The translations under genes and the position numbers were made by a program. 64,000 nucleotides of DNA from Patescibacteria group bacterium (GTDB lineage: Bacteria; Patescibacteriota; Patescibacteriia; Buchananbacterales; UBA6539): contig JBAZMQ010000006.1 of the NCBI GenBank assembly GCA_041649675.1, forward strand, positions 7,003 to 71,002, in the 5' to 3' direction. Positions 2,881 through 52,421 of this stretch are shown here, piece by piece (position 1 is the stretch's first letter; each line of letters starts with the position of its first letter). Under the pieces are notes generated by a model. That model searched no databases, was not told the origin of the DNA, and saw only the letters and a program-made list of their open reading frames with translations.

Positions 2881-2890
2881 AAAATCAGTA

Positions 2891-2926
2891 ATTTGCAGGC
2901 GCGAAAGCACCCTCGCGCCTGCAAAT
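2891..2926 (+). other. 13-bp perfect stem hairpin between trpB2 and trpS (no T tract)
   Basis: TTTGCAGGCGCGA-N8-TCGCGCCTGCAAA. Confidence 0.4.
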
Positions 2927-3065
2927 AGGGGTTTGGCCCGTTAATTAGTGAAAACATTAATTTAAAATTATCCTTGTTGATTACCAATGGTTCTAAAAAA
3001 TGACTAGCTGTAAATTATTAAGCGATGGGGTTTACATCATCACTCACAAGTATTAAAATAAGTAT

Positions 3066-14468: not shown

Positions 14469-14578
14469 CTGTCATTCTGAGGGAGTGCCGACATATAGTC
14501 GGCCCGACCGAAGAATCTCATACTATTTTTATAGGGATAAGATTCTTCACCCCGACTAAGTCGGGGTTCAGAATGACA
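14469..14578 (+). repeat. MITE-like structured repeat, copy 1 (TIR TGTCATTCTGAG / CTCAGAATGACA, inner IR CGAAGAATC / GATTCTTC)
   Basis: Nested inverted repeats read directly from the sequence. An ATG of the Elp3 gene lies 12 nt downstream. Confidence 0.8.
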
Positions 14579-14589
14579 ACTGACAAATT

Positions 14590-16182
14590 ATGAATAAAAA
14601 ATTAGTTACAATAACAAAATCTTTAGCCAAAGCCAAGTTTAAATCTCGGCTGGATTTAGTTAAACTGAAAAAAAAATTATCCAACCAGCTAAAAATGAAC
14701 GCCCCGCTTAACTCTGACTTGTTACGAATTTATAAAAATTTATTGGCTAAAAAAATTATTTTACCAAATAAAACCTTAGAACAACTTTTATGCAAACGCG
14801 AAATTCGAACTCTTTCGGGTGTGGCGGTAATTACGGTTTTAACTAAACCCTATCCTTGTCCGGGCCAATGTATTTATTGTCCCAGCGAAAAAGACATGCC
14901 TAAAAGTTATTTAAAAAACGAGCCAGCGGCCGCCCGAGCGTTTGCTACCAAATTTGATCCGTTTGTCCAAACTAAAGTTAGGCTCGACGCTTTAAAAATT
15001 AACGGCCACTCAACCGATAAAATTGAACTGATAGTTTTAGGTGGCAGCTTTAGTGCTTACCCAAAAAATTATCAGGCTTGGTTTATCAAACGCTGCTTTG
15101 AGGCTTTAAACAAAAAACCGGCCAAGAATCTTGCAACTGCCCAAAAGCAAAATGAAACTGCTTTGCATCGCTGCGTTGGTTTAACTTTGGAAACCAGACC
15201 GGACATGATTACGCCTAAAGAAATTGAAAGAATGAGGAATTTGGGCTGTACTCGCGTTGAACTGGGCGTGCAAACAATTTACGACCCTATCTTAAAACTA
15301 AACAAAAGAGGCCAGACTGTCAAACAAACAATTGAGGCAACAAAAATGCTTAAAGCTGCCGGCTTTAAAGTAATGTACCATCTAATGCCTAATTTGCCCG
15401 GCTCAAACTTAAAGTTAGATCTGAAAATGTTTAAAGAAATATTTTCTGGACCAAATTTTCAGCCGGACTTACTAAAAATTTATCCTTGCGTGGTGACAAA
15501 AAATTCAGTTTTATATCACTGGTACCGGCAAAAAAAATTTAAGTCTTATTCAGACAAAGAATTAAAGAATTTATTAATTAAAGTTAAACGATTAATTCCC
15601 CAGTATGTCCGCATCACCCGTTTAATCCGCGATATCCCGGCCGAGAGTATAATTGCTGGCAATAAAATCACAAACTTAAGACAACTAATTGCCCAGGATT
15701 TCAAAGGTTGCAAATGTATCCGATGCCGCGAAGCCGGACATAGCTTAGGAATTAAGAATTATGAAGCAGGAATAAGGAAAAAAAGTTCCTCCATAATTCA
15801 TAATTCCTGCTTCATAATTCAAAAATATAAGGCTAGCGGAGGAACAGAATATTTTCTAAGCTATGACTCAAAGGACAAAAAAATTCTTTATGCTTTTTTG
15901 CGACTAAGAATTAACGGCGATATTAATAATAATTTTATACCCGAACTAAAAGGAGCGGCACTTATTCGCGAACTGCATACTTACGGGCAGATGGCGCAAT
16001 TAGGTCAAATTGGTAAAGTTCAACATCTGGGTTTAGGTAAAATGCTTTTGGCCCAGGCCGAAACCATTGCCAAAAAACAAAAAATAAAAAAAATCGCTGT
16101 AATCTCTGGCATTGGTGTCAGACAATATTATAAAAAATTCGGCTACCATTTAGCCGGTACGTACATGCTAAAAAATTTATAA
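14590..16182 (+). CDS. elp3: Elp3-like radical SAM / GNAT acetyltransferase (tRNA U34 carboxymethyluridine synthase homolog)
   Basis: 530 aa. N-terminal radical-SAM Cys cluster (PCPGQCIYCP). C-terminal GNAT-like region. The overall Elp3 architecture. Confidence 0.75.
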   Translation: MNKKLVTITKSLAKAKFKSRLDLVKLKKKLSNQLKMNAPLNSDLLRIYKNLLAKKIILPNKTLEQLLCKREIRTLSGVAVITVLTKPYPCPGQCIYCPSEKDMPKSYLKNEPAAARAFATKFDPFVQTKVRLDALKINGHSTDKIELIVLGGSFSAYPKNYQAWFIKRCFEALNKKPAKNLATAQKQNETALHRCVGLTLETRPDMITPKEIERMRNLGCTRVELGVQTIYDPILKLNKRGQTVKQTIEATKMLKAAGFKVMYHLMPNLPGSNLKLDLKMFKEIFSGPNFQPDLLKIYPCVVTKNSVLYHWYRQKKFKSYSDKELKNLLIKVKRLIPQYVRITRLIRDIPAESIIAGNKITNLRQLIAQDFKGCKCIRCREAGHSLGIKNYEAGIRKKSSSIIHNSCFIIQKYKASGGTEYFLSYDSKDKKILYAFLRLRINGDINNNFIPELKGAALIRELHTYGQMAQLGQIGKVQHLGLGKMLLAQAETIAKKQKIKKIAVISGIGVRQYYKKFGYHLAGTYMLKNL

Positions 16183-16206
16183 GCTTACTGCAACTTAAAA
16201 AAAGAG

Positions 16207-16236
16207 TGGTCTAATTTTTTGGATTAGACCACGTGA
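16207..16236. terminator. bidirectional hairpin GTGGTCTAAT-TTTTTGG-ATTAGACCAC between convergent genes
   Basis: 10-bp perfect stem with a T-rich loop or flank. Confidence 0.5.
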
Positions 16237-16256
16237 CTAGCAAGGAACTTGAGCCA

Positions 16257-16961
16257 TCAGACTTGCACCGTCGGATGGCTACGGCGCAATTGGACAACTG
16301 TCCCGTCGGATAAAACAACCGGCGTTGGGTTGTGCCACTCTACTCCTTGTTTCTGACAAGGCAAGGTTGGAAAACCGGCTGACTCACTAAAGGCCCTGAG
16401 CGGCTGGGTGATTGCGCCTACAACCGGGCTGCAAGCAACAGCTACACCACCAACAATAACTAATTCGCCGGCGCCAGAACATCCACTTCTGCAGACAGCA
16501 CACGACGGTTCAAAGACTATCTTTGAATCCAGTACTATCGCGTCTAGTACCGGTGCCCGATGAAAGACTTTCACATGACCTTTGACTGAGAGATTAACTC
16601 CCTCTTCACCTGGCTGACACTGCTGACAAGGCAAGCAGCTCAGTTCAACTTCTTCCGGAAACTGGCGATAAGCCAGTATGCTGTAATCAGGCGCCGTCAG
16701 TTGAGCGGCTGGAAAACAGCCAATGCATAATCCTGGCTGGTCGGCTTTGGTAATCGCAATACCCCGACCATGGCAAGCGGTACAACCATTCCAGGGCCAT
16801 TTGGTGTCTTTGCTCCGGTAGGTTTCTAACGGAGCCGCTGCCTGAGGCAAAACGATTTTTGCCCCGCCTGCGGCTGTTTTAACAATCCGATGATTTGTCT
16901 TGTTTGCCATAATCTGATAATCCTCATAGTTTTGGGTTCTGCCTTTATTAACCGGAAACAT
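16257..16961 (-). CDS. GC-rich Cys-rich protein with one CxxCH heme-binding-type motif (c-type cytochrome-like?)
   Basis: CTACH motif plus multiple CxxC pairs. GC content is clearly above the flanks. Confidence 0.45.
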   Translation of the reverse strand: MFPVNKGRTQNYEDYQIMANKTNHRIVKTAAGGAKIVLPQAAAPLETYRSKDTKWPWNGCTACHGRGIAITKADQPGLCIGCFPAAQLTAPDYSILAYRQFPEEVELSCLPCQQCQPGEEGVNLSVKGHVKVFHRAPVLDAIVLDSKIVFEPSCAVCRSGCSGAGELVIVGGVAVACSPVVGAITQPLRAFSESAGFPTLPCQKQGVEWHNPTPVVLSDGTVVQLRRSHPTVQV

Positions 16962-17076
16962 ATTTCCCAGCTAACTCCATAATATACATACAATCTATCC
17001 AATTGTCAATCCCTAAAACAAGAGCTATAATATATATGCCAATAACAAAAATATTATAAATTAATTATATTAAATT

Positions 17077-17231
17077 GTTATTCTGAGGCCGACTACTCTC
17101 ATTGTTAAGTGAGGCCGAAGAATCTCCTTAACTTAGTGGATCCTTTGGCCCCAAACCTAATTAAGCGGCGACCTCAGGATGACCAGAAGGAGATTCTTTA
17201 CTCTCAAGAATAGCTTGGAGCTCAGAATGAC
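17077..17231 (+). repeat. MITE-like structured repeat, copy 2 (composite; roughly the reverse complement of copy 3)
   Basis: GTTATTCTGAGG ... GAGCTCAGAATGAC, with internal CGAAGAATCTCC / GGAGATTCTT and TCATCCTGAGG sub-repeats. An ATG lies 9 nt downstream. Confidence 0.75.
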
Positions 17232-17240
17232 GGAAAAGAT

Positions 17241-17648
17241 ATGACCCAAAACATTAATTTTCATTTTAATAATGTCGTCATCGTCTGCGGCCCAGTGATT
17301 ATTAAAGATAATAAAGTTTTACTAAATAAACACGGCGAAAGTAACTTATGGAAATTTCCCGGCGGCGATATTACCCAAGCCTCTGACGATTTAGAAACTT
17401 GGGCTCAAAAAAAAGTTAAAGAGGAAATGGATTTGGCAGTTGAAATTATTAAGGCACTAAAACCCATGGTAATTTGGAAAAACGATGAAGTAATTTTGCT
17501 GTTTCATTATTTAGCCGAGTTAAAAAGTGAAACCATAAAACCAGCCGCTTATATTCGCGAATACGGCTGGCATGATATTAATAATTTACCGAGTGATTGT
17601 TCGCCAAACATTAAACCAATAATTGAGGAAGTAATCAACAGTAAATAA
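17241..17648 (+). CDS. NUDIX-like hydrolase
   Basis: Nudix-box-like GG-x5-E-x7-K-x-V-x-EE-x2-L segment. Weak. Confidence 0.45.
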   Translation: MTQNINFHFNNVVIVCGPVIIKDNKVLLNKHGESNLWKFPGGDITQASDDLETWAQKKVKEEMDLAVEIIKALKPMVIWKNDEVILLFHYLAELKSETIKPAAYIREYGWHDINNLPSDCSPNIKPIIEEVINSK

Positions 17649-17697
17649 ATTAAGATACAATCAACATAGCACCAGGATAATTATTAAACATAAGATT

Positions 17698-18108
17698 ATG
17701 GTCTGTGTTGAAAATCCAAATAACAAATTTCCAATTTCAAATCAAATCCAAAATCAAAATAATAAAAAACAATTCAATTTAGTTGAGCGCACAGCTAGGT
17801 TCGGAGAAAAAATAATTGATTTTGCCAAAACCATTAATAAAAACCTAATTACCCGATCTTTAATCATACAGCTAGTTAAAGCGGCTACCAGCATTGGTGC
17901 TAATTATATGGAGGCTGATTGCGCTGAATCAAGAAAAGATTTTCGACACAAAATTGGCATCTGCAAAAAAGAAGCCAAGGAAACATCGCATTGGCTAAGA
18001 ATGGTGGCAAAAGCCAATCCGGAATTAAGCAATGAATGTCGAAAACTTTGGCAGGAAGCTCATGAGCTAACCTTGATATTCTCAGCCATAAGAAATAAGA
18101 CCAAATAG
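17698..18108 (+). CDS. four-helix-bundle protein (23S rRNA intervening-sequence protein family)
   Basis: Characteristic LVKAATSIGANYMEADCAESRKDFRHKIGICKKEAKETSHWLRM. Confidence 0.85.
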   Translation: MVCVENPNNKFPISNQIQNQNNKKQFNLVERTARFGEKIIDFAKTINKNLITRSLIIQLVKAATSIGANYMEADCAESRKDFRHKIGICKKEAKETSHWLRMVAKANPELSNECRKLWQEAHELTLIFSAIRNKTK

Positions 18109-18328
18109 ATATATTTGAAATTAGAAATTTAGTCTTGGTTTGACATTGGTAATTAGAAATTTGACATTATCTAAGTTATCCATAATTATAATCTGCAATC
18201 TTAAACCTATGATTTATGAATCGCTAGAATTTAAATAATCATTACCGAAAAGAAAAACCGCTTTTACAGACGGTTTTTTATTTGCTAAACTTAACCTTAT
18301 CTAAGCTAATTTCCTAACCACTTAACCT

Positions 18329-19582
18329 ATGAAATACGAACAACTAAGAGCCCAGGACCCCCAAATAGCAGATCTGATTGCTTTGGAAATCAAAAGACAG
18401 CAAGACGGTTTGGTAATGATCCCTTCGGAAAATCATGCTTCCGTCGCGGTTTTGGAAGCGATGGCAACGGTTTTATCCAATAAATACGCCGAAGGCTATC
18501 CTAATAAACGCTACTATACTGGCAACCAATATATTGATCAAATTGAATTACTGGCAATCAGCAGAGCCAAAGAATTATTTGGCGCCGAGCATGCCAATGT
18601 TCAACCCAACGCCGGCAGCGGGGCCAACCTGGCAATTTATTTAGCCACTTTAAAACCGGGCGACAAAGTCATGGGTATGAAACTGGACCAAGGCGGTCAT
18701 TTGACTCACGGCCATCCGGTTAATTTATCCGGCCAACTTTATAATTTTGTCCAATACGGCGTTAGAAAAGACACCGAACTAATTGACTTGGAAGAAATTC
18801 GAACAATGGCGAAAAAAGAAAAACCGAAAATGATCGTCACCGGCGCTACCGCTTACCCCAGAATTTTTGACTTCAAAGCTTTTAAAGAAATTTGCGATGA
18901 AGTCGGCGCAATTCTATTGGCTGATATTTCTCATTTTGTCGGACTCTGTATTTCCGGTGATCACCCAAAGCCTTTCCCCTATGCCGACTTTGTCATGACT
19001 ACCACCCATAAAACTTTACGCGGACCAAGAAGTGCTATAATCCTAGCCAAAGAAAAATACGCCAAAGCCATTGATAAAGCAATTTTTCCTGGCACCCAGG
19101 GCGGACCGCTAGAGCATGTGATTGCGGCTAAAGCAGTTTGCTTTCAAGAAGCATTAAAACCGGAATTCAAAGATTATGCCAGTCAAATTGTTAAAAATGC
19201 CAAAGCCTTAGCTAAAACTTTCATTGACCAGGGATTGGAATTGGTTTCTGGTGGTACGGACAATCATTTAATGCTAATTAAATGCGCACCGCTTGGTTTA
19301 ACCGGTCGCCAAGGTTCGGAAGTTTTGGCCGAAGGCGGAATTTATACCAATCGCAACACCGTACCTTATGATACGGGTTCGGCCTTTGAACCAACCGGCA
19401 TTCGCCTAGGCACGCCAGCCTTAACTACCAGAGGAATGAAAGAACCAGAGATGGAAATTATTGGAAAAATTATTGCTAAAGTTCTAAAGAATGCCAATGA
19501 TGATAAAATTAAAAAAGAGCTCAAAGATACTGTTTTTCAATTAACCAAAAAATTCCCAACCTATCCGGGCATGTCTATTTAA
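18329..19582 (+). CDS. glyA: serine hydroxymethyltransferase
   Basis: PLP site TTTHKTLRGPR and the HLTHGH motif. Confidence 0.9.
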   Translation: MKYEQLRAQDPQIADLIALEIKRQQDGLVMIPSENHASVAVLEAMATVLSNKYAEGYPNKRYYTGNQYIDQIELLAISRAKELFGAEHANVQPNAGSGANLAIYLATLKPGDKVMGMKLDQGGHLTHGHPVNLSGQLYNFVQYGVRKDTELIDLEEIRTMAKKEKPKMIVTGATAYPRIFDFKAFKEICDEVGAILLADISHFVGLCISGDHPKPFPYADFVMTTTHKTLRGPRSAIILAKEKYAKAIDKAIFPGTQGGPLEHVIAAKAVCFQEALKPEFKDYASQIVKNAKALAKTFIDQGLELVSGGTDNHLMLIKCAPLGLTGRQGSEVLAEGGIYTNRNTVPYDTGSAFEPTGIRLGTPALTTRGMKEPEMEIIGKIIAKVLKNANDDKIKKELKDTVFQLTKKFPTYPGMSI

Positions 19583-19590
19583 TCCGCCCT

Positions 19591-19722
19591 CTGTCATTCT
19601 GAGCTCTAAGCTATTATTGAGCGCGAAGAATCTCTTTCTGGTCATCCTGAGGTCACCACTTAATTAGGTTTAGGACCGAAAGATCCACTAAGCCAAGGGA
19701 TTCTTCGGCCTCAGAATGACAA
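19591..19722 (+). repeat. MITE-like structured repeat, copy 3
   Basis: CTGTCATTCTGAGC ... CCTCAGAATGACAA with inner CGAAGAATCTC / GGATTCTTCGG. The folD ATG lies 12 nt downstream. Confidence 0.8.
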
Positions 19723-19732
19723 CCATAAAAAA

Positions 19733-20590
19733 ATGTCAAAACAAATTGCAAAAAAGATAGATGGCAAATTGATTGCCGAAAAAATATTACTTGACCTAAA
19801 AGCCAAGATTACTAAGCTTAAGCGGCCGCCAGGTTTGGCTGTGATTTTAATTGGCAATGATTCAGCTTCTCAGCTTTATGTCAGAAATAAAAAAAAGGCC
19901 AGCCAAAAAATCGGCATTGAATTTCACGACTACCTTTGCGGCGGTAAATGTTACCCTCATATCACGGAAAACGAAATTTTGCAAATGATTGATTTTTTAA
20001 ATGCTGACCAAACTGTTGATGGTATTATTGTTCAATTGCCAATCCCAAAAAAGTTTGACTCGCAAAAAATTATAAACCGAATCTCGCCGCAAAAAGACGT
20101 TGATGGTTTTCATCCCCAAAACAAAAAAAACTTTTTGGCCTCAAAACCAGGTATCATTCCCCCCTTAATGCAAGCAATTAACGAAGCTTTAATTTTTACG
20201 GGTGAGAATTTAAAAGGCAAAGAAGCGGTAATAGTGGTTAATAACCCAATTTACAGCGAGACCAGAAAAAAAGAATTTACCGATTTGGGTTTGAAGGTAA
20301 AAATTACTAAACCCGGACCAAACTTAGCTAATGAAACTAGAAAGGCAGATGTCTTGGTTGTAATTTTAGGCCAAAAAAACTTAATTAAAAAATCAATGGT
20401 CAAGCCCGGCGCCATTGTAATTGATGTTGGTACAAATTTAATTTCCAAAAACAACTGGACTGGCGACGTTGACCCCAAGGTCGCCCAAGTGGCTGGTTGG
20501 CTAACACCGGTGCCCGGTGGTATCGGTCCAATGACGGTGGCTTTCTTGCTAAAAAACACCTACGAACAAGCCAAAAACAAATTACAATAA
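19733..20590 (+). CDS. folD: bifunctional methylene-THF dehydrogenase / methenyl-THF cyclohydrolase
   Basis: FolD length and motifs (VILIGNDSASQLYV... and GGIGPMTVAFLLKNT). Confidence 0.9.
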   Translation: MSKQIAKKIDGKLIAEKILLDLKAKITKLKRPPGLAVILIGNDSASQLYVRNKKKASQKIGIEFHDYLCGGKCYPHITENEILQMIDFLNADQTVDGIIVQLPIPKKFDSQKIINRISPQKDVDGFHPQNKKNFLASKPGIIPPLMQAINEALIFTGENLKGKEAVIVVNNPIYSETRKKEFTDLGLKVKITKPGPNLANETRKADVLVVILGQKNLIKKSMVKPGAIVIDVGTNLISKNNWTGDVDPKVAQVAGWLTPVPGGIGPMTVAFLLKNTYEQAKNKLQ

Positions 20591-20593
20591 TAC

Positions 20594-20640
20594 AAAAACC
20601 TGTAGAGGCACATTGCAATGCGCCTCTACAGGTTTTTTAT
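20594..20640 (+). terminator. intrinsic terminator
   Basis: AAACCTGTAGAGGC-loop-GCGCCTCTACAGGTTTTTT. Confidence 0.8.
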
Positions 20641-20732
20641 TTATATAAAATAGATTATTTTTGAGGGGGCCGGAGAGATCTTCGCAAAGGATACGATCTC
20701 TCCGGTGAGGGTAACGGGTGGGGTGTTTGAGA

Positions 20733-21086
20733 CTACGCGATGGCGGTCTGCCGACGGGAAAACCGTTGCGGCATAAACGCGCGCGCTTTCTGGAAAACCC
20801 GTTTCGTCCAGGATTTCTCCGTCTTTTTGGACGGAACGATCACATCGGACATGATCTTGGGAGGGGCAAGGATGCCCTTCACGACGGTGTCGGTGGTCCG
20901 GCGCTTGCGCTTGGTGGTCCGGTTCAGCAGCTTGTTTGCGCTCTCCGTGGTCAGTTGACCGCGCTTCTGCAGAACCTTCACGGCGCGCTTTTGCGGGTCG
21001 CCATTGGGCATTAAGTAAGCGGGAATGAACTTATCACCGCGCCGTTGCCGAAGCCGCCGTTCAATATGACGTTGATGTGCATTCAT
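20733..21086 (-). CDS. small basic protein (117 aa, K/R-rich) inside a GC-rich insertion
   Basis: RBS AAGGAGA lies 6 nt upstream of the ATG. No family recognised. Region 20650-21110 is markedly GC-rich. Confidence 0.4.
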   Translation of the reverse strand: MNAHQRHIERRLRQRRGDKFIPAYLMPNGDPQKRAVKVLQKRGQLTTESANKLLNRTTKRKRRTTDTVVKGILAPPKIMSDVIVPSKKTEKSWTKRVFQKARAFMPQRFSRRQTAIA

Positions 21087-21263
21087 TGGCCATTCTCCTT
21101 ATTGTTGGCCTCCAAAAAAACCTAACGGTGTAACAGTAAAAAACAAACTTCCAAGGTACCGATTATTATAGCATAGTATAAAATATTTGTCAATAATATC
21201 ATTAAATATATACTGTATATTGGCTAAATTTAGATAAAAAAAGACGGGTGTGGAAACACTCGT

Positions 21264-22133
21264 CTACAATAAACAAAGGTCATATACTACTTTTTCATAG
21301 CCTGGTATCTCGGCTGCCTGATTAATTGACTGGTGGCTAACTCGCCAAACTTCAAATAGAAGCCGGAGGTAATCAGCTACCGGTTGACCGCATTCATCAA
21401 ACGGCTTACCACTACTGACTTTGAATATACCGGATTCCGGATCGGCGGCGGTATCAAGCGGTTTAGAGATATAAATGGTCACCTCGGTTCGACAAGGTAT
21501 TGATATTCCATGCCATTTTCGCCATTGCCAACCAGGAAACATCTTCCCTTTGGGCCAAACTTTACCACTACCAACATCGTTAACCAAAACTAAAAGTGGC
21601 TCAGTCTCAACCAAAGTACGGCCAACGCCTGGGTTAACCTGGGGTAAACCTTCCTGTCCGGCTTCGTTACGCGTTCCGGCCGCAAAGTTCAAAAGCACAC
21701 AATTGATTCGAGAATTTAGATAGTTAATCACTGCCCGAACCGCTTGGCTGCGTTTTCTTTTATCCGGGCTGACGCCAAAGATATTAAAGCGCAAAGCTAA
21801 TATCCACCAAAGCGGCTTGTAGGTGGTCTTGGCCAAAACGGCTGGTATCATTGACAGCTTGCCAGGAGCAAGCACCCAAGGCCAAAAAATGGCAATGACA
21901 ACGACAAAGATGCCAATGAACGATGGATGATCAGCAATCAACATAATCCGGCCGGAGCGAGGAAAATTTTCTTTGCCAACGACTTTGACTTTGCAAAAAA
22001 TTCTGGTCAAAGGGTAAAACAAGAGAACAAACAACGTCGCCATCAACCGATCCAACCACCAAAAGAGCAGGATCTGCCCTAACCAATTAATCATTTTCCA
22101 AGACTTCATGCATATCTCCTTTCCGAAATACAA
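21264..22133 (-). CDS. lysophospholipid (1-acylglycerol-3-phosphate) acyltransferase-like membrane protein
   Basis: H-x4-D-like block (IADHPSFIG) and FAAGTRNEAG (FPEGTR-like). N-terminal TM. Confidence 0.45.
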   Translation of the reverse strand: MYFGKEICMKSWKMINWLGQILLFWWLDRLMATLFVLLFYPLTRIFCKVKVVGKENFPRSGRIMLIADHPSFIGIFVVVIAIFWPWVLAPGKLSMIPAVLAKTTYKPLWWILALRFNIFGVSPDKRKRSQAVRAVINYLNSRINCVLLNFAAGTRNEAGQEGLPQVNPGVGRTLVETEPLLVLVNDVGSGKVWPKGKMFPGWQWRKWHGISIPCRTEVTIYISKPLDTAADPESGIFKVSSGKPFDECGQPVADYLRLLFEVWRVSHQSINQAAEIPGYEKVVYDLCLL

Positions 22134-22174
22134 CGTTGAGCTATTACAGATCTGTTACATCTTAATACAAAAAA

Positions 22175-22200
22175 ACCGCCCTGGCAACCAGGGCGGTCAA
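22175..22200 (-). terminator. intrinsic terminator for the 22212..22661 gene
   Basis: CCGCCCTGG-TTGC-CAGGGCGG followed by TTTTTTT on the minus strand. Confidence 0.75.
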
Positions 22201-22211
22201 AATTTTGTAAT

Positions 22212-22661
22212 TTAGACTTTTGGCGGAATTGGCGGCATAGGCAACGGAGTGGTATTTTGGCTTTTCATTAATTGCCCGCCATGAGTAATTTTAGCAGTGG
22301 CAATAATGCTAATAAGAGTCAGAACAAAACTAACCCATAAACTCCACATGCCATAAAAGCTTTTCAGACCGTCAAGGTAAGTACCGTCAGCTTTGACATA
22401 TTGAATAGTAATCAATAAATCCAAAACGGCACTAATTACTAACCAAAAAATTCCCAAGGCCAAAGCTTCTTTTAAATCACTTGGATATTTCTTAAAGTAA
22501 ATTCTGGACAAAATAAAGCTAGCTAAAACCGCTAAAATTATTTCCAAAATTCTTTGCCATAAAACCGCGATTGGCATAACCATAAAAGCCGAAACCCCAA
22601 TAAACATTATGGCCCAAAAACCAGCACCCAAGCCCAAAGCTAATTTCCAATTTTTAATCAT
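22212..22661 (-). CDS. hypothetical 4-TM membrane protein
   Basis: ORF with four hydrophobic helices and a Pro-rich C-terminus. Confidence 0.5.
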   Translation of the reverse strand: MIKNWKLALGLGAGFWAIMFIGVSAFMVMPIAVLWQRILEIILAVLASFILSRIYFKKYPSDLKEALALGIFWLVISAVLDLLITIQYVKADGTYLDGLKSFYGMWSLWVSFVLTLISIIATAKITHGGQLMKSQNTTPLPMPPIPPKV

Positions 22662-22675
22662 AAGTTTTTAGTTTA

Positions 22676-23059
22676 TTAATAAGATTTAATTACATTACAA
22701 TTGCCATCAACCTCAACAAAATGGCTGACTTTGCCTTGGCCAAAAGATTGACATTGATTAGCGGCCTCATTGTCAATTGACTGCCGAGGTGAATGGGCCA
22801 CATCGCAAGCCCAACCAGGAATAATTTCTTCGCTTAAACACGGTCCGCGATCAAAATCTTTACCATCGGTTGATAATCGGTTTTGGCATAACTCCTGGCA
22901 CTGCATAATGGCTAAAGTTTTATCGGCCTGCTTTTTTTGTTCAATTTGGACTTTACCACTAACATAATCAGCCGTGTCTTGAATGGGTTTAGTTACCGCA
23001 TTTTGACAACCGGAAAGAATAAGACTGCTAATTATTAGAACAACTATTCTTTTTAACAT
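22676..23059 (-). CDS. small secreted Cys-containing lipoprotein
   Basis: Lipobox LILSGC after a signal peptide. 7 Cys. Confidence 0.5.
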   Translation of the reverse strand: MLKRIVVLIISSLILSGCQNAVTKPIQDTADYVSGKVQIEQKKQADKTLAIMQCQELCQNRLSTDGKDFDRGPCLSEEIIPGWACDVAHSPRQSIDNEAANQCQSFGQGKVSHFVEVDGNCNVIKSY

Positions 23060-23084
23060 AAATTTAAAAATAAAAAGTCTTTCT

Positions 23085-23200
23085 GGCTCCCTCTCCCCTG
23101 GTGAAAGAGGGACTTAGTCTTCATATAGCGGGTGAGGGGGCTAAATTCATCAGTTTACCTCCCCCTCTCCTAGCCTCCCCCACAAGGGGGGGAGGAGGAA
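23085..23200. repeat. GC-rich palindrome cluster (CCCTCTCC family), locus A
   Basis: CCCTCT-N11-AGAGGG. GGGTGAGGGGG-N20-CCCCCTCTCC. CCTCCCCC-ACAA-GGGGGGGAGG. Confidence 0.7.
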
Positions 23201-23245
23201 ATCTTGGCGATTGCGCCTGCTTTAACTTACCTTCTTGCTGGTTTA

Positions 23246-23749
23246 TTATTTCATTTTAAATATCAACCAATTCTTTTTTTGGGGTGTAAATTGGGCCAAA
23301 ACATAAATCCCCTTTAATCTTTTTCCTTTTAATTTAAACTTCAAAGATTTTGCGGTGCTTTCCAATAATTCAAATTTACCTTTGTCCCAAATTTCTACCC
23401 GCCCAGCGCCGTAATTACCTTTAGGAATTACCCCAGAAAAATTAATATAGTCAACCGGATGATCTTCAACGGCCACGGCCAAATGTTTAATCCCAGACAC
23501 CGTGGGCAGACCTTTTGGCACGGCCCAAGATTTTAGCACAACCTGCCTACGCTCGCCTTCGGCGAGCTTCGGCAGGCGAGCCAGCTCTTTAAAAATATCT
23601 CCGGGTAACTCTAGACGGAAATCATAATGCAAATGACTGGCTTGATGTTTTTGAACCACAAAACGATTTAAACCTTTGGCCTTAGCTTGACCTTTTGGTT
23701 CTGGCGTTTTACTAAACTTTCTTTTTTGATTGTATTTTTTTAAAACCAC
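23246..23749 (-). CDS. stand-alone DNA ligase D 3'-phosphoesterase (LigD-PE) domain protein
   Basis: FVVQKHQASHLHYDFRLE signature of LigD phosphoesterase. Confidence 0.75.
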   Translation of the reverse strand: MVLKKYNQKRKFSKTPEPKGQAKAKGLNRFVVQKHQASHLHYDFRLELPGDIFKELARLPKLAEGERRQVVLKSWAVPKGLPTVSGIKHLAVAVEDHPVDYINFSGVIPKGNYGAGRVEIWDKGKFELLESTAKSLKFKLKGKRLKGIYVLAQFTPQKKNWLIFKMK

Positions 23750-23759
23750 AATGTTTTAA

Positions 23760-23950
23760 ATTAGAAAATCTAAGCACTAAATCCTAAACAAATCATAAAT
23801 CATAAATTTTAAATTCCAAACGTTTACTATTTATAATTTAAAAATTCGGATTTGTTTAGGATTTAGATATTCGGATTTAGAATTTAGTGCTTATTCTCTC
23901 CCTGCCTCCCTGTTCTCTGTTTTCTGTTCTCTGTTCTCTGTTTTCTGTAA
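23760..23950. repeat. complex AT-rich inverted repeat plus (TGTTCTC/TGTTTTC)n tandem heptamer tract
   Basis: CTAAGCACTAAATCCTAAACAAATC versus GATTTGTTTAGGATTTAG / GGATTTAGAATTTAGTGCTTA. About 5 tandem heptamers at 23915-23950. Confidence 0.7.
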
Positions 23951-24035
23951 ACTCCTATACTTTCATTGTAGTGCCACTGGCAAAAAAGGTCAAAAAAAAG
24001 AGACCAGTCAAATGCTTATAGCACTTAGCTGGTCA

Positions 24036-25133
24036 TTAGTTTACGGAAATGAACATATCCTCGCGCTGGAATTGCACCAAAGGCTTGCCCAGCATCTGGC
24101 CGCAGATCTTCAGGTAGATATTGGTAGTCTCCTCAACCGTCTCTTCGGGCCATTCCAGTTCCGAGACCCAATTGACGTGGGCTTCGTTCTCCGGATCGAG
24201 GTTGTCTATACCGATAATCTGCTCACCCTTGTGTTCACCCTTTTCGTAGAAAAACGGCGTAGGAACCTTGGCGCCGATAGCGCGGACATATTCTTTATCC
24301 GACGTTTCCAGGTTCGTACCGGCTGCCATTGCGGCATTATATTTCTCTTCCTCAATGAACCGCGATGAATCAGGGGTAAGAATCTCATCTGCCGCCACCA
24401 GCTCATTGTTGGCATTCAAACCAAACTCAAACTTGGTGTCAAAAAGGATGATTTTCTTAGATTTGGCATAGTCTGATCCCCGATCATACAACTTGAGCGA
24501 GAGATCCACTGCTTCCTGCGCCAACTGTTTTGGATCGCGGTTAATGCCATTTTCCCGCAGCCAGGCACCAAGAATCACCAGCATTTCGCCAAAAGTCAGA
24601 TGTTTATCGTGGCCGTCCTCGGATTTAGTCGTGGGGGTAGCAATTGCCGTAGATAATTTGCAACCCTTAGTGAGACCTTCAGGCAATAAAATGCCACAGA
24701 CTTCACGGGTCGCTTGGTAGCTTTTCCAACCGCTGCCACCCAAATAGCCGCGAACGACAAACTCGATGGGCAACATCCTGAGATTAAGAACAATCATGCC
24801 CCGCGATTGCAGGTCGGCGTTCCCACGCAATTCTTCGGGTAGATACTTGTCAATGGCCGCGCCATACGCCACGAGGTGGTTGGGGATATCCGCGAAGACA
24901 TTCAATAGCCAGTCGATGGTCATGGCGGTTAGGACCGAGCCCTTGAGCGAAATCAGCAGATTGAGGATGAAATCAAAAATGCTGATTCGGTCCGTGGCGA
25001 CGATAAGCCGCAAGTCGGGAAAACTAGGCAAGGCGTAGGAGTTGCGCACCTTGCCGACAGTCAATTCGTTGAGCTTTGTTGCCAGCAAGATGAATAGCGG
25101 CAACGCAAGCAGTCTGGGGTTAATCTTTTTCAT
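24036..25133 (-). CDS. purC: SAICAR synthetase (long form)
   Basis: FVVRGYLGGSGW and DTKFEFG motifs. GC-rich. Confidence 0.8.
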   Translation of the reverse strand: MKKINPRLLALPLFILLATKLNELTVGKVRNSYALPSFPDLRLIVATDRISIFDFILNLLISLKGSVLTAMTIDWLLNVFADIPNHLVAYGAAIDKYLPEELRGNADLQSRGMIVLNLRMLPIEFVVRGYLGGSGWKSYQATREVCGILLPEGLTKGCKLSTAIATPTTKSEDGHDKHLTFGEMLVILGAWLRENGINRDPKQLAQEAVDLSLKLYDRGSDYAKSKKIILFDTKFEFGLNANNELVAADEILTPDSSRFIEEEKYNAAMAAGTNLETSDKEYVRAIGAKVPTPFFYEKGEHKGEQIIGIDNLDPENEAHVNWVSELEWPEETVEETTNIYLKICGQMLGKPLVQFQREDMFISVN

Positions 25134-25175
25134 GGTTTCTTCTTTTCCTTCCTGTCTGTTGTAACTTGTTGTTTT

Positions 25176-25898
25176 CTATCCGAGAGCCGCAATGGCTTGG
25201 GTCCACGTTTGAAACGACGCTTCTTTGCCTTTGGCGTCGGCAATCCGTTGCCGTAAATCGTCAGGGATTTGGCCGTTAACCGCGAATTCGCAAGCGCGAG
25301 TAAAACCGTCGGGGCCAAAGTACTGTCCGGCTTCATCACCGCTAATAAGCAGATCCGCGCCGGGAAATTGCGTCATGGCCAGTAAGGCAGCCACATTTTT
25401 TCGCTGCTCATCATTCATTGCCGCCACAATCTCCTGGGGCGTCCGAGCGCTGTTGAGAACAACGTTGACTTCCGAGTCGGTTGTCGGCTCTTTTGGTTTC
25501 TCACACTTCAGAGCCACACCAATAACAATGATGTTTTTGGCGTGGAGTCCGTGGTACAAATAGCCTGCGGCTAAGCCGGGCAAAACTGCCAGCCAGCCAG
25601 CGGCCATGACCAAGACGTAATCGGTATCGAGATGGCTTTGCGCAATATTCGCCAGCCTGGTCAAAAACTCAAACAGGATGGCGAAGTTCCGATGGGCACT
25701 GATCGTGAAGTGCCCTGTGCCTCTGTGCTTGGGCTCAAGTACCAGCCGAACCGCCGGGTCCAGATCAATAATTTTCCCTGACTCGATCGCAGCCAAAGCT
25801 GCCGCCAGCGTTTTCCAACCGCCGCCTAACTGTTTGGCGTCGTTTGGCGAGCCAGCAATGGTTATAACTACCCTTTTTCTTGTTTCTTCAGTTGCCAC
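25176..25898 (-). CDS. purE: AIR carboxylase family (PurE-like) with C-terminal extension
   Basis: VVITIAGSPND (GSxSD-like) and AAGWLAVLPGLAAG...IIVIGVA (PurE core). GTG start. Confidence 0.65.
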   Translation of the reverse strand: MATEETRKRVVITIAGSPNDAKQLGGGWKTLAAALAAIESGKIIDLDPAVRLVLEPKHRGTGHFTISAHRNFAILFEFLTRLANIAQSHLDTDYVLVMAAGWLAVLPGLAAGYLYHGLHAKNIIVIGVALKCEKPKEPTTDSEVNVVLNSARTPQEIVAAMNDEQRKNVAALLAMTQFPGADLLISGDEAGQYFGPDGFTRACEFAVNGQIPDDLRQRIADAKGKEASFQTWTQAIAALG

Positions 25899-26126
25899 TG
25901 ATACTGTCCAACCTTTCTGGTTTTGTCCTTACGGACGCTTCGTTTTCTTTTCCATACCTCCCTTGTTTTGGGCGGTATCTTGCTTTGTCAATAAAATATA
26001 TTGTCAAAAAACAAAGTCTTTCCTCCTTGATCCGCCAAAGCCCGAGGGCAGAGGCAAACTCCTTGAAAAGACTAGTTTTGTACTCACAAATTAACAAAAA
26101 AATAATTAAATGTCAATGATCACCAA

Positions 26127-26214
26127 TTGTCATTCTGAAGAAGCGAAGCGGCTGAAAAATCCCAAAAGTTTAAGATTCTTCGCGCTAAAATATCGCTTAG
26201 AGCTCAGAATGACA
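26127..26214 (+). repeat. MITE-like structured repeat, copy 4
   Basis: TTGTCATTCTGAAG ... GAGCTCAGAATGACAG. An ATG lies 10 nt downstream (27-codon ORF). Confidence 0.75.
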
Positions 26215-26331
26215 GTAGGAGATATGCGCCTATTCGTTAATGTTATTTGGATAAAAAAAAGAAGCCAGTCAAACCCTCATGGATCTGACCGGCCGTTGAT
26301 TACTTAAACTTCCCTCCACCTCTTTCTTCGC

Positions 26332-28206
26332 CTAGTGCTTGGCAAAAAGCCGATCGGCGCTACTCAGGAAGGCGACAGAAAGCCCGGACTTGCTAAACAA
26401 AGCCTTGACGTTCTCGATCTCCTTGCCGTCAGCCGGCACCACGCCACCGATACAACCGGCGTCAATGAGCAATTCGGTTCCCTCTCGTCTATCCGATTGG
26501 GAAATCAGTGTGGCCATTTCGCCCAACAGCCTGATCGTCTCCAGTTGATTGCCAACCCGGTCAGCACTTCTCGCCTGAGCCAACAGCCACTCAATCTGGG
26601 CTAAGTCTACCGGCGGCTGTTCTCCGGTGGCATACGGGAAGAATGCATCCGAGGCAAAAACCGAACCTTGGGTGGTATGCCCAGCCCGTCTGGCCCGCTC
26701 AATGCAGAGCCTGACACAGGCAATCCGGTCTTGCTGGCCGCAGCCGAGACCAATTAACATCCGGTTCTTGGCCAAAGCCACGGTATTGCTGGAAGACCGA
26801 TAACAGGCCACCCAGGCAATCAGCAGATCTTCAAACCGGTCGTCGCTCAAAGGCACCCCGACCCAGGATTCAATCGTTTCCCTGGTCAGGATAAAACTTG
26901 GCGCCTTCTGTTTAAGGACATCACCGTTGCCAAGAAACTGCCACATCCATTCATTGGTTGGCATTTGCGGATCCAGTAATGCCAAATTGCTTAACAACCG
27001 GCGTTTCTCCCGCTTCCCTAGCTGCTCAACCGCGCCCGGGGAAAATGACGGAGCATAGATAATGTCCAGACCCCAGTTCTTCCGGCCAATCAACAGACTG
27101 AGTGGCGGGGACATCAATTCAACTCCAAGTTCATCGGTGATAGCGAAATTGGTAACTACTTCACCGCCCATTACCGCTACCTTGTCACCCGTCAAAGCTT
27201 TACGCAAAGCCGTTATGGGACTGGCCCAATCAACACCAATGCCGCAAACATTGCCGTGCTTTCCGGCAACAACAATGTACGGCACTTTACCGTAGACTCT
27301 TCGGTAAGCCTCGGCCAGAAAACGCAAAGCCCCGATCAGGCCGGCACCGTCTGCGATGCTGATGTAGCTAGGGTCGCCGGAAACGACTTGAAACTTGCTA
27401 GTTGCCAGCGGATCGTCGCTGTCGGTGGTAAACAGAAAAGCCGGGTCTTGGCGGTGATTTTCAGCATAGGCCAACTTTCGCGCCAACCGCATGAAGATGC
27501 CATCGAAATGACCGCCGCTGTGAAAACGGGCGGATTCCATCCGGTACCGAGACACGACGAAGTCAGCCTTGGCACAAAGGGCATTGCGGGTCTCTTCGGT
27601 AATCTCACCGTTATGCTCGCGCATCTGGTCAATCACCATCTGCCGGTCAGCCGGATCGCAAATCACAATTCGGCGACCCTTGGCTCCTTCGGAAACCATG
27701 GTCGGCCCGCCAATGTCAGTACCTTCGACAACCGACTCGGTTGTCGCGCCTTCCGCCTCGATTGCTCTCATTAGGGCATAGAAGTCGCAAACCACCATGT
27801 CGATGAAGGGGATACCAAACTTCGCCAGTTCCTTAAGATCAGAATCAATAGCCCGTGCGAGGAGTCCGGCTGATTTCGGCCGCGAAAGACTCACTACGCG
27901 ATGACCGAGCATCGGATTAGCATCAAGCAACTTTGCGACAGCTTTGGCTGAGAGCTTCCGACCACCCCTTTTGGTCTTAAAAGAAATACCGGCGCTAACA
28001 AATTCCTGAACCATGCTGCGCGTAATCATGTCAGCGATGTCTTGAACTTTGATACCGGCCGCCGCCAGATATTTGCACGTACCGGCCGAGCCAATAATGT
28101 GCCAGTTGCCCAATGCCTGCAACTGCCGAACAAAATCGACAATGTTAGGATTTTCCTTTTCAGTGACACTAATTAGCGCCACCCTCTGTCTCTGTTTTTC
28201 GGACAT
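26332..28206 (-). CDS. purH: bifunctional AICAR transformylase / IMP cyclohydrolase
   Basis: MGS domain ALISVTEK, DIGGPTMV, GCGQQDR and ASDAFFPYA motifs. GC-rich. Confidence 0.85.
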   Translation of the reverse strand: MSEKQRQRVALISVTEKENPNIVDFVRQLQALGNWHIIGSAGTCKYLAAAGIKVQDIADMITRSMVQEFVSAGISFKTKRGGRKLSAKAVAKLLDANPMLGHRVVSLSRPKSAGLLARAIDSDLKELAKFGIPFIDMVVCDFYALMRAIEAEGATTESVVEGTDIGGPTMVSEGAKGRRIVICDPADRQMVIDQMREHNGEITEETRNALCAKADFVVSRYRMESARFHSGGHFDGIFMRLARKLAYAENHRQDPAFLFTTDSDDPLATSKFQVVSGDPSYISIADGAGLIGALRFLAEAYRRVYGKVPYIVVAGKHGNVCGIGVDWASPITALRKALTGDKVAVMGGEVVTNFAITDELGVELMSPPLSLLIGRKNWGLDIIYAPSFSPGAVEQLGKREKRRLLSNLALLDPQMPTNEWMWQFLGNGDVLKQKAPSFILTRETIESWVGVPLSDDRFEDLLIAWVACYRSSSNTVALAKNRMLIGLGCGQQDRIACVRLCIERARRAGHTTQGSVFASDAFFPYATGEQPPVDLAQIEWLLAQARSADRVGNQLETIRLLGEMATLISQSDRREGTELLIDAGCIGGVVPADGKEIENVKALFSKSGLSVAFLSSADRLFAKH

Positions 28207-28234
28207 TGTTGTATCTTCCTCTCATTCTGTTTGA

Positions 28235-29821
28235 CTAAGCCGCGATAGGCTTGAGTCCGTTGGTTGTTTCCCGTCTTGCATCTTTAATCGCATCACCCAT
28301 GTAATGCGTTGGGTGCTTCAATAAATGAAGTTCCCGGCGCGTTAGGCCCTTCCAGGCGCGACGGAATTTCTGGTCGGTTTCATTAGCCTGCAGGTAAAGC
28401 TCAGCCGCGACACAAAGGTTTGGCGCTCCGGCCTTAACCCGGGCAATCAACTCCTTTTTGACAAAAGTATGAGCGCCGGCAAATCCCTCGCGCTGTAATG
28501 CATTATGAAGCAATTCCGCCAAAGACGCTGGCCCAAATGTCTGAACCCAGTGCAGACAGCGCTCTTCGTTGAAGGCTAGGACGCTCATCTGCCGCTTTAC
28601 GCTGTAAAGCTCCTGAGCAAAGTACTCCAAGGCTTCAATGAATGTCCTCATAACCGATGACCAACGCAAATCGCGTTGGAAATTGCTGCCGCGCGTCAAC
28701 CAAGGTCTTAAGGCGCAACTCAGTACGATTGTGTCTGCACCAATGGCATTTTCGGCCCGGATTGGATTAGCTTCTTTAGCCGCTCCGGCCGAAGAGGTGG
28801 AAGTGACATCCACCTCCTTTGAAGGAACAACCTCACCGAGTTCGGGCATATGCAAGATGCGAAGGTCTTCGCACAGACTCATCATCGGTCCGCCGATGGC
28901 AACAAGGTCACTATAAAAATGAACCGTATGATGAATCGGCGCAATCTGGGTGCTGCCTTTAGCGACTGGTAAGTCCAGAATGCTCATCAGTGTTCGTTCT
29001 GCTTTCTTGGGAATACCCACCGCTCGCTGGGATGCAGCCGTACCAACGAAACCGCAAAATTTGCCCGGCATAGCTAAAGCGGCCCGCTGCAGTTCAAGGG
29101 CACAATCGGTAAATTGCCGATGGGCACAAGCCAGGTAAAATCCGACGGTACCGGGTATGGCTGGCTGCAAGTGAGTGCGAAACATCTGGCGCGTCGTCAA
29201 ATATTCGTTGATCTTTGCCCGCCAGGTTTCATCAAGCGCCATCATCTTTGGCCACAGAACCAGACTGAACACGACTCGAAGCTGCAGGGCATATGCCGTT
29301 GAAATCGTATCATAGGAAGTTGCCGTATAGTGCAGCCACTTCCAAAGTCCTTTGGGCAAATACCGGCGCATCAAAGCCAACAACGCCAAGATGTCGTGAC
29401 CCATTCCCTTGGTCCCTTTCTTCTTGTCGCCGTATTCCAGCCGGTCTTGTTTGGTTGTAGTAACGTGCTTGAGCACATACAATAAACGTTCGGTGGTCAG
29501 AAGCCTGGCGTCTTTTTCGGGCATGACTCCGATGATGGCCAACGCCACCATCCAGAACCATTCCACGATGACCAACCAGGCCGCCCACTGGTCGTAACCA
29601 AGATACGGAACCAATTCAGGCTGCTGCTCTTCGTAGCGGTGATCCATATGCATCACTAAAACTCGCCGCGGATCCTCAGCCAGAACCGCCAGATAAGCAA
29701 TTGCGGCTGCCAACATCTCTCTTGCCTGTTTAATCGTCATACGCTTTGAACCTTTCTCCAATTTTTTTTCTATCAGCCATAGCCAAATGACCAATTCATC
29801 TAAACCTATATTTATTGTCAA
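28235..29821 (-). CDS. purB: fumarate-lyase superfamily, adenylosuccinate lyase-like
   Basis: SSAGAAKEANPIRAE resembles the GSSxMPxKxNP signature. About 100 aa N-terminal extension. GC-rich. Confidence 0.55.
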   Translation of the reverse strand: MTINIGLDELVIWLWLIEKKLEKGSKRMTIKQAREMLAAAIAYLAVLAEDPRRVLVMHMDHRYEEQQPELVPYLGYDQWAAWLVIVEWFWMVALAIIGVMPEKDARLLTTERLLYVLKHVTTTKQDRLEYGDKKKGTKGMGHDILALLALMRRYLPKGLWKWLHYTATSYDTISTAYALQLRVVFSLVLWPKMMALDETWRAKINEYLTTRQMFRTHLQPAIPGTVGFYLACAHRQFTDCALELQRAALAMPGKFCGFVGTAASQRAVGIPKKAERTLMSILDLPVAKGSTQIAPIHHTVHFYSDLVAIGGPMMSLCEDLRILHMPELGEVVPSKEVDVTSTSSAGAAKEANPIRAENAIGADTIVLSCALRPWLTRGSNFQRDLRWSSVMRTFIEALEYFAQELYSVKRQMSVLAFNEERCLHWVQTFGPASLAELLHNALQREGFAGAHTFVKKELIARVKAGAPNLCVAAELYLQANETDQKFRRAWKGLTRRELHLLKHPTHYMGDAIKDARRETTNGLKPIAA

Positions 29822-29904
29822 AAAACAAAGTCTTTCCCTCCCTGGAAAGACTGTTTTGTATTATTAATCTAACAAAATTGCCACTAAATGTCAAAATAAC
29901 CAAT

Positions 29905-30022
29905 TGTCATTCTGAGGGATCCACCCCCTGTCTACCAACAGACAGGCGGGGGTGGAGACCGAAGAATCTCAAACGTTTGGGATTCTTCGCACCCAGATAT
30001 TGCTTGGAGCTCAGAATGACAG
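29905..30022 (+). repeat. MITE-like structured repeat, copy 5
   Basis: TTGTCATTCTGAGG ... GAGCTCAGAATGACAG with inner palindrome CCACCCCCTGTC / GACAGGCGGGGGTGG and CGAAGAATC / GATTCTTCG. An ATG lies 10 nt downstream (15-codon ORF). Confidence 0.8.
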
Positions 30023-30106
30023 TACGAGATATGTACATATTCGTAATGCCATTCGCCTACAAAAAAAGACCAGCCTGAATATCTTTCAAGCTGGGATAAA
30101 AATCCA

Positions 30107-35597: not shown

Positions 35598-35846
35598 ATT
35601 TTTACCCTGCAAAACGTGGTAAATTTAACAATTTAACCTTTTCCCGCCCTGCAATAAACTAGGGCATTAACCTTATCATTTAATATGATAAGGAAAGGTG
35701 TTTTTTCCTGGCTAATAGAAGCCTGGTTGACGTAGCGCGCAAAACATCTTTGGGCGTTTTTAATTTAAAGTTAAGAATCAGAAGTAATGAATTGTGGAAA
35801 TGAATGGCAGTCACGATTCCTAATTTCTAATTCCTAATTTCTAGCT

Positions 35847-51516: not shown

Positions 51517-51590
51517 TGATGAATTATGAATTATGAATTATGAATCGGGAGAGTTGCCATAATTCCTGATTCATAATTCCTAATTCTAGA
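51517..51590. repeat. AT-rich inverted repeat (GAATTAT x3.5 ... ATTCATAATTCCTAATTC)
   Basis: Left arm GAATTATGAATTATGAATTATGAATC is complementary to right arm GATTCATAATTCCTAATTC. Confidence 0.65.
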
Positions 51591-52193: not shown

Positions 52194-52207
52194 TGAACAG
52201 AATAATG

Positions 52208-52290: not shown

Positions 52291-52421
52291 TACCGCAAAA
52301 ATCTAACTTTTACCAATATTTTTAAATTGACAAAAACTCCTTATTTAGCTAAGATTTTAAAGATCTGAAAAATCGTGCAACCTACAACTAAAACAAAGTT
52401 ATCACATTGGAGGAAGAGTCT

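Follow-up and report, generated by a model that had tools for sequence, protein, structure and literature searches.

The DNA examined here is a 64-kb window (the whole stretch that was analysed) of a Patescibacteria metagenome-assembled genome. Five short repeat elements, all of them intergenic, were re-read in it at 14470-14578, 17076-17232, 19592-19721, 26128-26214 and 29905-30021. A sequence-only reading of the same stretch had proposed five copies of a new, structured repeat resembling a MITE (miniature inverted-repeat transposable element). Direct reading finds the five copies at the positions claimed, as well as their inverted repeats, with outer boxes TGTCATTCTGAG / CTCAGAATGACA and inner boxes CGAAGAATC / GATTCTTCG. 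The elements are 87-157 nt long, have TG...CA termini and carry terminal inverted repeats (TIRs) of 11-12 nt. At up to two mismatches TGTCATTCTGAG matches the window 14 times, and 12 of these matches fall inside the five elements; the chance expectation is 3.4 and the highest count in 100 shuffles was 8. The 64-kb window holds no further copy. Weaker matches at 62799 and 39597 were considered as extra copies and rejected as chance matches within coding sequence. On both strands, single-strand folds of the elements are much more stable than those of shuffled sequence (z -4.3 to -10.6). Their confinement to 15.6 of the 64 kb amounts to mild clustering (p ~0.014, calculated here on the basis of five uniform points).

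A divergent methyltransferase gene (start 14457, minus strand) and an ELP3-like gene (start 14590, plus strand) are 132 nt apart, and element 1 accounts for 109 of these. Element 2 lies 3' of a promoter-like site (17003-17031, 11/12) and ends 8 nt before the NUDIX start at 17241. The stop of glyA is at 19582 and the start of folD at 19733; element 3 takes up 130 of the 150 nt that separate them. The other two sit among purine-synthesis genes, element 4 between the purH minus-strand terminator (26294-26263) and a purE-like minus-strand promoter (near 26120-26090), and element 5 between an adk-like minus-strand terminator (30094-30070) and the purB minus-strand promoter (29894-29866). Both of these promoters fire away from the elements. 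About 290 nt around elements 4 and 5 are homologous, and the promoters at 29894-29866 and near 26120-26090 are paralogs.

Twelve smaller modules make up the elements, each following the pattern GTC-ATTCT-GA-(inner hairpin closed by G:C)-GA-AGAAT-C; seven are intact while five have one deviation. The modules span 22-63 nt, and their stems are ATTCT/AGAAT or ATCCT/AGGAT. The GTC tag is present in 11 of the 12; the trailing C is present in all 12, a count that is not independent because the window scan demanded it. Elements 1, 4 and 5 are inverted doublets (plus, minus), element 2 reads plus, minus, minus, and element 3 reads plus, plus, minus, with an ATCCT stem in the middle module of both triplets. 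In element 1, the intact module 1L (14471-14517, plus) encloses a 29-nt hairpin, and 1R (14541-14577, minus), also intact, has a compensated A:T closing pair in place of G:C. In element 2, the tag of 2L (17077-17124, plus) is GTT, the nested 2M (17139-17183, minus) has the stem ATCCT/AGGAT and AA for the second GA, and 2R (17192-17231, minus) likewise has AA there. Element 3 starts with the intact 3L (19593-19632, plus), whose inner hairpin type is shared with 2R, 4R and 5R; the nested 3M (19641-19685, plus) follows, with one mismatch in its stem (ATCCT/AAGAT), and then 3R (19699-19720, minus), a minimal module with an inner part of GGCC only. Element 4 pairs a degenerate 4L (26129-26161, plus; stem ATTCT/AAAAT, one mismatch) with an intact 4R (26174-26213, minus). 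Both modules of element 5 are intact, 5L (29906-29968, plus) with a 45-nt inner hairpin and 5R (29981-30020, minus).

This anatomy bears on orientation. The sequence-only reading had placed all five copies in the same orientation, which is wrong: copy 3 is the reverse complement of copy 2. It had also seen that these two are, internally, roughly reverse complements of each other, and a 109-nt inverted repeat at 86% does join them, with arms at 17126-17234 in element 2 and 19590-19698 in element 3. When reverse-complemented, the left end of element 3 corresponds to the right module of elements 4 and 5. In a doublet, either strand presents a GA-sense module first and then its complement. With such symmetric outer ends, an orientation of the whole element hardly exists, and no strand is assigned to the five.

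An ATG follows the right end of every copy, as had been pointed out, at a spacing of 8-11 nt. Three of these ATGs were correctly taken for genuine gene starts: 14590 of an ELP3-like radical SAM protein, 17241 of a NUDIX protein and 19733 of FolD. The tiny open reading frames (ORFs) proposed behind copies 4 and 5 fare less well. Their ATGs exist, but they lie in one shared paralogous flank and are not independent, and the frame is broken by an indel after ATTCGT; without a common frame they count as one event and not as coding. The ATG regularity does not point to function, because two of the cases are that single flank and the other three are elements filling short spacers. A Shine-Dalgarno-like motif precedes only 9 of the 44 window genes, so that nothing upstream of the starts needs preserving. 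An unrelated AT-rich repeat family of the window likewise abuts start codons, which makes closeness to an ATG a property of this genome. A crude ORF caller applied to 2 Mb of other genomes puts the median gap to a start codon at 82-100 nt, with 5 of 75 pair ends at 6-15 nt; in other loci of the candidate phyla radiation (CPR) the distance is 41-600 nt. With distances elsewhere mostly larger, the suggestion that the repeat targets translation-initiation regions is unsupported. A 65-aa gene called across element 4 in the public assembly (window 26110-26307; L241 16378-16575) is almost certainly spurious.

Relatives show both filled and empty sites. The closest named relatives of the window FolD are from Candidatus Buchananbacteria (61%) and Komeilibacteria (52%), and a second assembly of the same population is identical over the region. 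Four orthologous sites in syntenic relatives lack the element. The glyA-folD spacer without it measures 7 nt in L255 (FolD 73% identical) and 68 nt in L256 (67%), and the methyltransferase-ELP3 spacer without it is 62 nt in L258 (70%). In L256 the pur promoter and leader hairpin that flank elements 4 and 5 are joined straight to the adk terminator, with no doublet between them. The region upstream of the NUDIX gene in L258 has no module. One insertion is shared by L254 (FolD 78% identical), whose contig starts with ...GAATGACA, after which come 9 nt and then the ATG of folD. The empty orthologous sites mark the window copies as insertions. Of the MITE-like description, therefore, the structured, repeated, non-coding and insertion-like parts stand; a parental insertion sequence (IS) and a target-site duplication do not go with them. 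The duplication, for which the sequence-only reading had asked, is absent at all five elements when the flanks are read directly. Contigs L242 and L254 both begin inside an element, so these repeats break assemblies.

The module is not confined to this lineage. The pattern GTCATTCTGAG-N(0-30)-CGAAGAATC was scanned in viral contigs and in one-genome-per-species contigs, and 240 loci, 2.04 Mb in all, were taken for census: at least 120 loci match in viral contigs and at least 120 in genome contigs. Among the matches listed, more than 20 phyla are represented; the hosts include Nitrospirae, Chloroflexi, Acidobacteria, Bacteroidota, Firmicutes, alpha-, gamma- and delta-Proteobacteria, Campylobacterota, Verrucomicrobia, Planctomycetes, Omnitrophota, Melainabacteria, Actinobacteria and seven CPR genomes. 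The listed loci hold 542 strict modules, as against one in shuffled sequence. Of these, 362 are intergenic where about 14% of the sequence is intergenic, and 293 have no strict partner. The family is thus not new, as had been claimed: it is pan-bacterial and belongs with the NTS/Ssn-related hairpin repeats described in 2025. The pattern also matches GTCATTCTGAGGAGCGCCATTTACACGAAGAATC within a conserved phage ORF of ~396 aa (L009, L010, L014, L015, L032, L040, L043 and others), which looks like a coding-sequence match and not an element. Metagenomes scanned for the lineage-specific inner hairpin GCTTRGAGCTCAGAATGAC gave six matches, dismissed as chance matches in coding sequence.

Base pairing was examined with a non-circular test, in which matches to GTC-N5-GA-N7-GA-N5-C were collected with the ascertained stem left out. 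Stems with 5/5 Watson-Crick pairs occur in 49 of the 122 non-ascertained matches, in nine stem variants, where chance predicts about 0.1; the other matches resemble chance background. The inner closing pair co-varies as well (G:C 468, A:T 35, C:G 18). Secondary-structure covariation, which had been proposed as a check on the repeat, is therefore present in both the 5-nt stem and the inner closing pair. The two modules of an inverted doublet have different stems in 100 of 130 cases, so that what is kept is the local hairpin and not end-to-end pairing. The flanks are conserved too: among 170 non-ascertained modules the upstream bases are G in 154, T in 161 and C in 158, and the downstream base is C in 157, each above 90%. 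The inner parts have a preferred form, GCGNAGC in 119 of 176 that are seven nt long and GCGNNAGC in 21 of 35 that are eight nt long. Both belong to the DNA mini-hairpins noted for extraordinary stability; as RNA, such hairpins are much less stable (PMC13037366). The hairpin type of the module is that of DNA.

When the ORFs beside modules were clustered, a single recurrent kind emerged, which encodes a single-domain GIY-YIG protein (PF01541) of 93-109 aa. In L125 (Saccharibacteria), L150 (Gracilibacteria) and L240 such an ORF is 4-19 nt away from a module; the L125 gene is 6 nt from a GA-type module, that is, one with the GA steps of the window form. L150 and L253 have a module-gene-module arrangement with GA-type modules. 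In L253 the gene (2881-3116) is decayed, with stop codons and a truncation, and stands between intact GTCATCCTGAG...CGAAGGAC modules, which suggests a route from a gene-bearing element to an empty doublet. The GIY-YIG gene of L251 is bracketed by exact NTS consensus sites, and its protein is 45% identical to that of L125 (E 1e-28). For these proteins NCBIfam offers no specific model, and a PDB sequence search with one that is encoded next to a module turned up no relative of solved structure; a literature search with sequence strings returned only plasmid and primer matches. Another candidate partner was tried and dropped. A gene for a four-helix-bundle protein (23S rRNA intervening-sequence protein, TIGR02436) lies at 17698-18108 between the NUDIX gene and glyA; L258 lacks it at that spot, where the spacer is 70 nt, so this gene was itself inserted. 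Only one distant homolog occurs near a module in the 240 listed loci.

The NTS is a repeat of Neisseria with the sequence CGTCATTCCCGCGMAVGCGGGAATCYRG (Chenal et al. 2025, Nat Commun 16:2388, PMC11893778). Similar repeats of other phyla were named "Ssn-related motifs" (SRM) in that work. SsnA is a 94-aa GIY-YIG protein that binds the NTS hairpin as single-stranded DNA only and cuts upstream of it; it is inactive toward double-stranded DNA, RNA and the reverse strand (PMC11893778). Mutagenesis showed that the GTC directly 5' of the palindrome governs cleavage and that the C directly 3' of it is the most critical base for binding. Such motifs occur near 71% of the ssnA homologs and flank 42% of them on both sides, and among genomes with more than 200 SRMs, 81% are reported to hold ssn as well (PMC11893778).

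The modules share several features with this class. GTC precedes the palindrome in 11 of the 12 window modules and in more than 90% of the 170 modules elsewhere, where the trailing C, counted without bias, follows in 157. The palindrome is of the ATTCY...RGAAT hairpin type, in modules of 22-63 nt against 20-50 nt for the class, and the repeats are numerous and mostly intergenic. The five elements are therefore best explained as inverted doublets of a pan-bacterial single-stranded DNA hairpin repeat of the NTS/dRS3-type SRM class, a third module being nested in two of the five, a reading to which we give a probability of roughly three in four. On this reading the window repeats are a variant of a known repeat class that escapes the published motif and that entered a Patescibacteria lineage recently.

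Several observations weigh against this assignment. The published motif HGTCWYN(0-2)YYVSBRHN(0-5)WNVSBRGN(0-2)RNCYNB matches no window module; its sole match in the window, at 6954-6982 on the minus strand, has nothing to do with them. The motif accepts the NTS consensus but not the commonest GA-type module. The failure is due to the G.A step and the longer inner hairpins. The window modules carry inner hairpins of 19-45 nt rather than the mini-hairpin. A six-frame profile search found no GIY-YIG gene in the 64-kb window or in the 6.3 kb further left, and only four GIY-YIG genes occur in the 120 genome loci listed, so that most modules are far from any ssn gene. What ties the module-adjacent GIY-YIG proteins to the class is the 45% identity with the L251 protein, whose gene has exact NTS sites on both sides. 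PMC11893778 makes no mention of Patescibacteria and leaves open how SRMs spread.

If the assignment is correct, the mechanism would follow the described system. The module hairpin would form in single-stranded DNA, where a small single-domain GIY-YIG nuclease (Ssn, cd10448) would bind it and cut that strand only, a few nt 5' of the tag. In that system modules stand on either side of ssn genes, arranged like an IS, and accumulate between genes singly or in pairs. The doublets entered short intergenic spacers of this Patescibacteria genome after its split from the relatives, and start-codon proximity follows from the small spacers and the near absence of Shine-Dalgarno sites. A cognate Ssn may act on the window copies, Ssn or another enzyme may spread them, and they might affect neighbouring genes. 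A bolder proposal treats GA-type doublets as non-autonomous mobile elements, which an Ssn-type GIY-YIG nuclease would move in trans. On each strand of a doublet, the module at the 5' side would be in the cleavable sense; given the known cut a few nt 5' of GTC, cuts would fall just outside both element ends, on opposite strands. This is the geometry that would be expected for excision or insertion of a hairpin element. We hold the proposal only tentatively, and to our knowledge GIY-YIG-driven transposition of single-stranded DNA hairpin repeats has been shown for no system.

Three other explanations have to be weighed. The window itself has a REP-associated tyrosine transposase (RAYT) gene at 61342-61890 on the minus strand (NF047646 equivalog, 84.3 bits against a cut-off of 80; PF01797), and the elements might be repetitive extragenic palindromes (REPs), or REPINs, mobilised by it. 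Inverted hairpin doublets are the REPIN architecture, and the parallel was drawn by Chenal et al. themselves (PMC11893778). The surroundings of the gene point elsewhere. It is flanked by other repeats and by no GTC-tagged module: TAACAsGC hairpins at 61325-61345 and 61900-61920 (TAACAGCCTTTAGGCTGTTA / TAACACGCTAAAGCGTGTTA) and, outside these, 22-nt inverted AT-rich repeats of the TTAGGA/TAATTCC type at 61288-61309 and 61971-61992. The nearest module is 31 kb away. In the 240 listed loci there is one weak RAYT-like match (E 6.5e-5), 3.9 kb from a module, whereas three of the four GIY-YIG genes are within 19 nt of one. The module tag is GTC and not GTAG or CGTC, the known REP tags (PMC3733652). 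Mobilisation by RAYT is hence unlikely. The window's second palindromic family, GAATTAAGAATTATGAA...TTCATAATTCCTAATTC, is AT-rich and occurs at 15741-15835, 35757-35839, 51515-51607 and 52200-52299 in addition to the RAYT flanks; one copy is within the ELP3-like ORF and several abut start codons. Its resemblance to the outer repeats around the RAYT gene means that it may be the REPIN family of that RAYT. A classical MITE, a deletion derivative of an IS with a DDE transposase that recognises the TIRs and makes target-site duplications, would also account for TG...CA termini, 11-12-nt TIRs, a length of 87-157 nt, intergenic location and presence or absence between relatives. Yet 0 of 5 elements have a target-site duplication, the supposed TIR is half of a self-contained hairpin module that also stands alone (the 293 without a strict partner), and the two ends differ in 100 of 130 doublets. 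No transposase family recurs beside modules in the 2 Mb of listed loci; only GIY-YIG does. A classical MITE origin is accordingly very improbable.

The third possibility is a transcribed cis-regulatory RNA, such as a leader, a riboswitch-like structure or a ribozyme, just before start codons. Elements 1-3 do end 8-11 nt before real start codons, element 2 is downstream of the 11/12 promoter-like site, element 3 is within a probable glyA-folD transcript, and the folds are very stable. Such distances to start codons are not conserved elsewhere, though, and the AT-rich family of the window also abuts starts. Elements 2 and 3 are mutually reverse complementary, and elements 4 and 5, being upstream of promoters that fire away, are outside transcription units. 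Solitary modules in other genomes show no orientation bias relative to flanking genes (53 same, 47 opposite). A search of Rfam 15 gave no match for the window at gathering score and none for the elements even at E<=10. Stems with one mismatch show no excess of G:U over A:C, an asymmetry that is uninformative as a test because imperfect stems are too few. GNA-triloop mini-hairpins are a DNA-stable motif, and SsnA does not bind RNA (PMC11893778). The 5'-untranslated-region (5'-UTR) RNA, leader or ribozyme of the sequence-only reading was dropped on the Rfam result, the 53:47 orientation and the promoters that point away from elements 4 and 5; a regulatory RNA is very improbable too, if marginally less so than a MITE. 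The mobile promoter/UTR cassette offered alongside it also falls, in that the promoter and leader beside elements 4 and 5 are present in L256 without an element. Two narrower candidates were rejected. CAGAAT in the element ends resembles a -10 box of an outward promoter, and no consistent -35 box was seen by eye in elements 1-3. A likeness to the hammerhead or the k-turn was dropped, as the CUGA...GAA spacing does not fit the hammerhead core and Rfam gave no match.

The purine-synthesis region in which elements 4 and 5 lie has features of its own. The two paralogous intergenic stretches of ~290 nt (25990-26331 and 29790-30106; L256 18107-18341) are pur cassettes, in each of which a minus-strand promoter is accompanied by a leader hairpin, AGTCTTTCC...GGAAAGACT, with a T-run after it. 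The leader resembles a conserved attenuator for pur genes and has no Rfam match. In the window the cassettes flank purH-purB (3.8 kb); L256 has one cassette and lacks purH-purB between a fused purC-purE gene and adk. The stretch 24001-30000, which holds the purine-synthesis genes, has a G+C content of up to 0.51, against a window mean of ~0.41, and Shine-Dalgarno-like motifs are commoner in it, which suggests a foreign origin. A 130-nt palindrome (23757-23886, 65-nt arms at 74%) is located between a LigD_N-like gene and purC.

Taken by itself the window adds little: it lengthens the list of a repeat class described in 2025 by five copies. In the sampled metagenome-derived genomes the repeat most often takes a form with a tandem G.A step around a DNA mini-hairpin core. 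The published motif misses this form, so that counts of Ssn-related repeats and of the genomes that hold them are probably underestimates. Both the repeat and its nuclease extend into Patescibacteria. Clean filled and empty orthologous sites bear on whether these repeats are mobile and what moves them, and the window lineage, in which four or five insertions are datable and relatives have the corresponding empty sites, would be a testing ground for GIY-YIG-driven mobility. The elements are also a warning for annotation, as they break assemblies and spawn spurious small ORFs.

Among known systems, the d(GCGNAGC)/d(GCGNNAGC) mini-hairpins of Hirao and co-workers (PMC13037366) are exactly the commonest core of the module family; they are a structural motif and not a genetic element. 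The Correia/NEMIS, ERIC, RUP and BOX elements are similar in size (~100-150 nt), have inverted ends, are co-transcribed with neighbours and are present or absent between strains. The elements described here differ from them in having neither target duplication nor parental IS, in consisting of modular hairpins and not simple TIRs, and in being pan-bacterial. REPs and REPINs with their RAYTs are likewise short tagged intergenic hairpins, single or as inverted doublets that form a longer hairpin, linked to a small enzyme that acts on single-stranded DNA hairpins and whose gene is flanked by the repeats. There the enzyme is HUH-Y1 and the tag GTAG or CGTC, whereas the modules go with GIY-YIG and GTC. 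REPs are specific to a genus or species; the module sequence is common to many phyla. From the Neisseria NTS the module differs by a tandem G.A/A.G step where NTS has two C-G pairs, by its inner part, a GNA/GNNA mini-hairpin or, in the window, a 19-45-nt hairpin, and by the inverted doublets and triplets of the window, in a Patescibacteria host with no ssn gene found in ~70 kb of its genome. With NTS/dRS3 and the SRMs it nevertheless shares the GTCAT tag, the ATTCY...RGAAT palindrome and the trailing C, in a 20-50-nt hairpin of high copy number, intergenic and spread across phyla. In both, the repeats bracket small single-domain GIY-YIG genes, for the module in genomes other than that of the window, and the positions conserved in the module are those that were important in mutagenesis of the Neisseria repeat.

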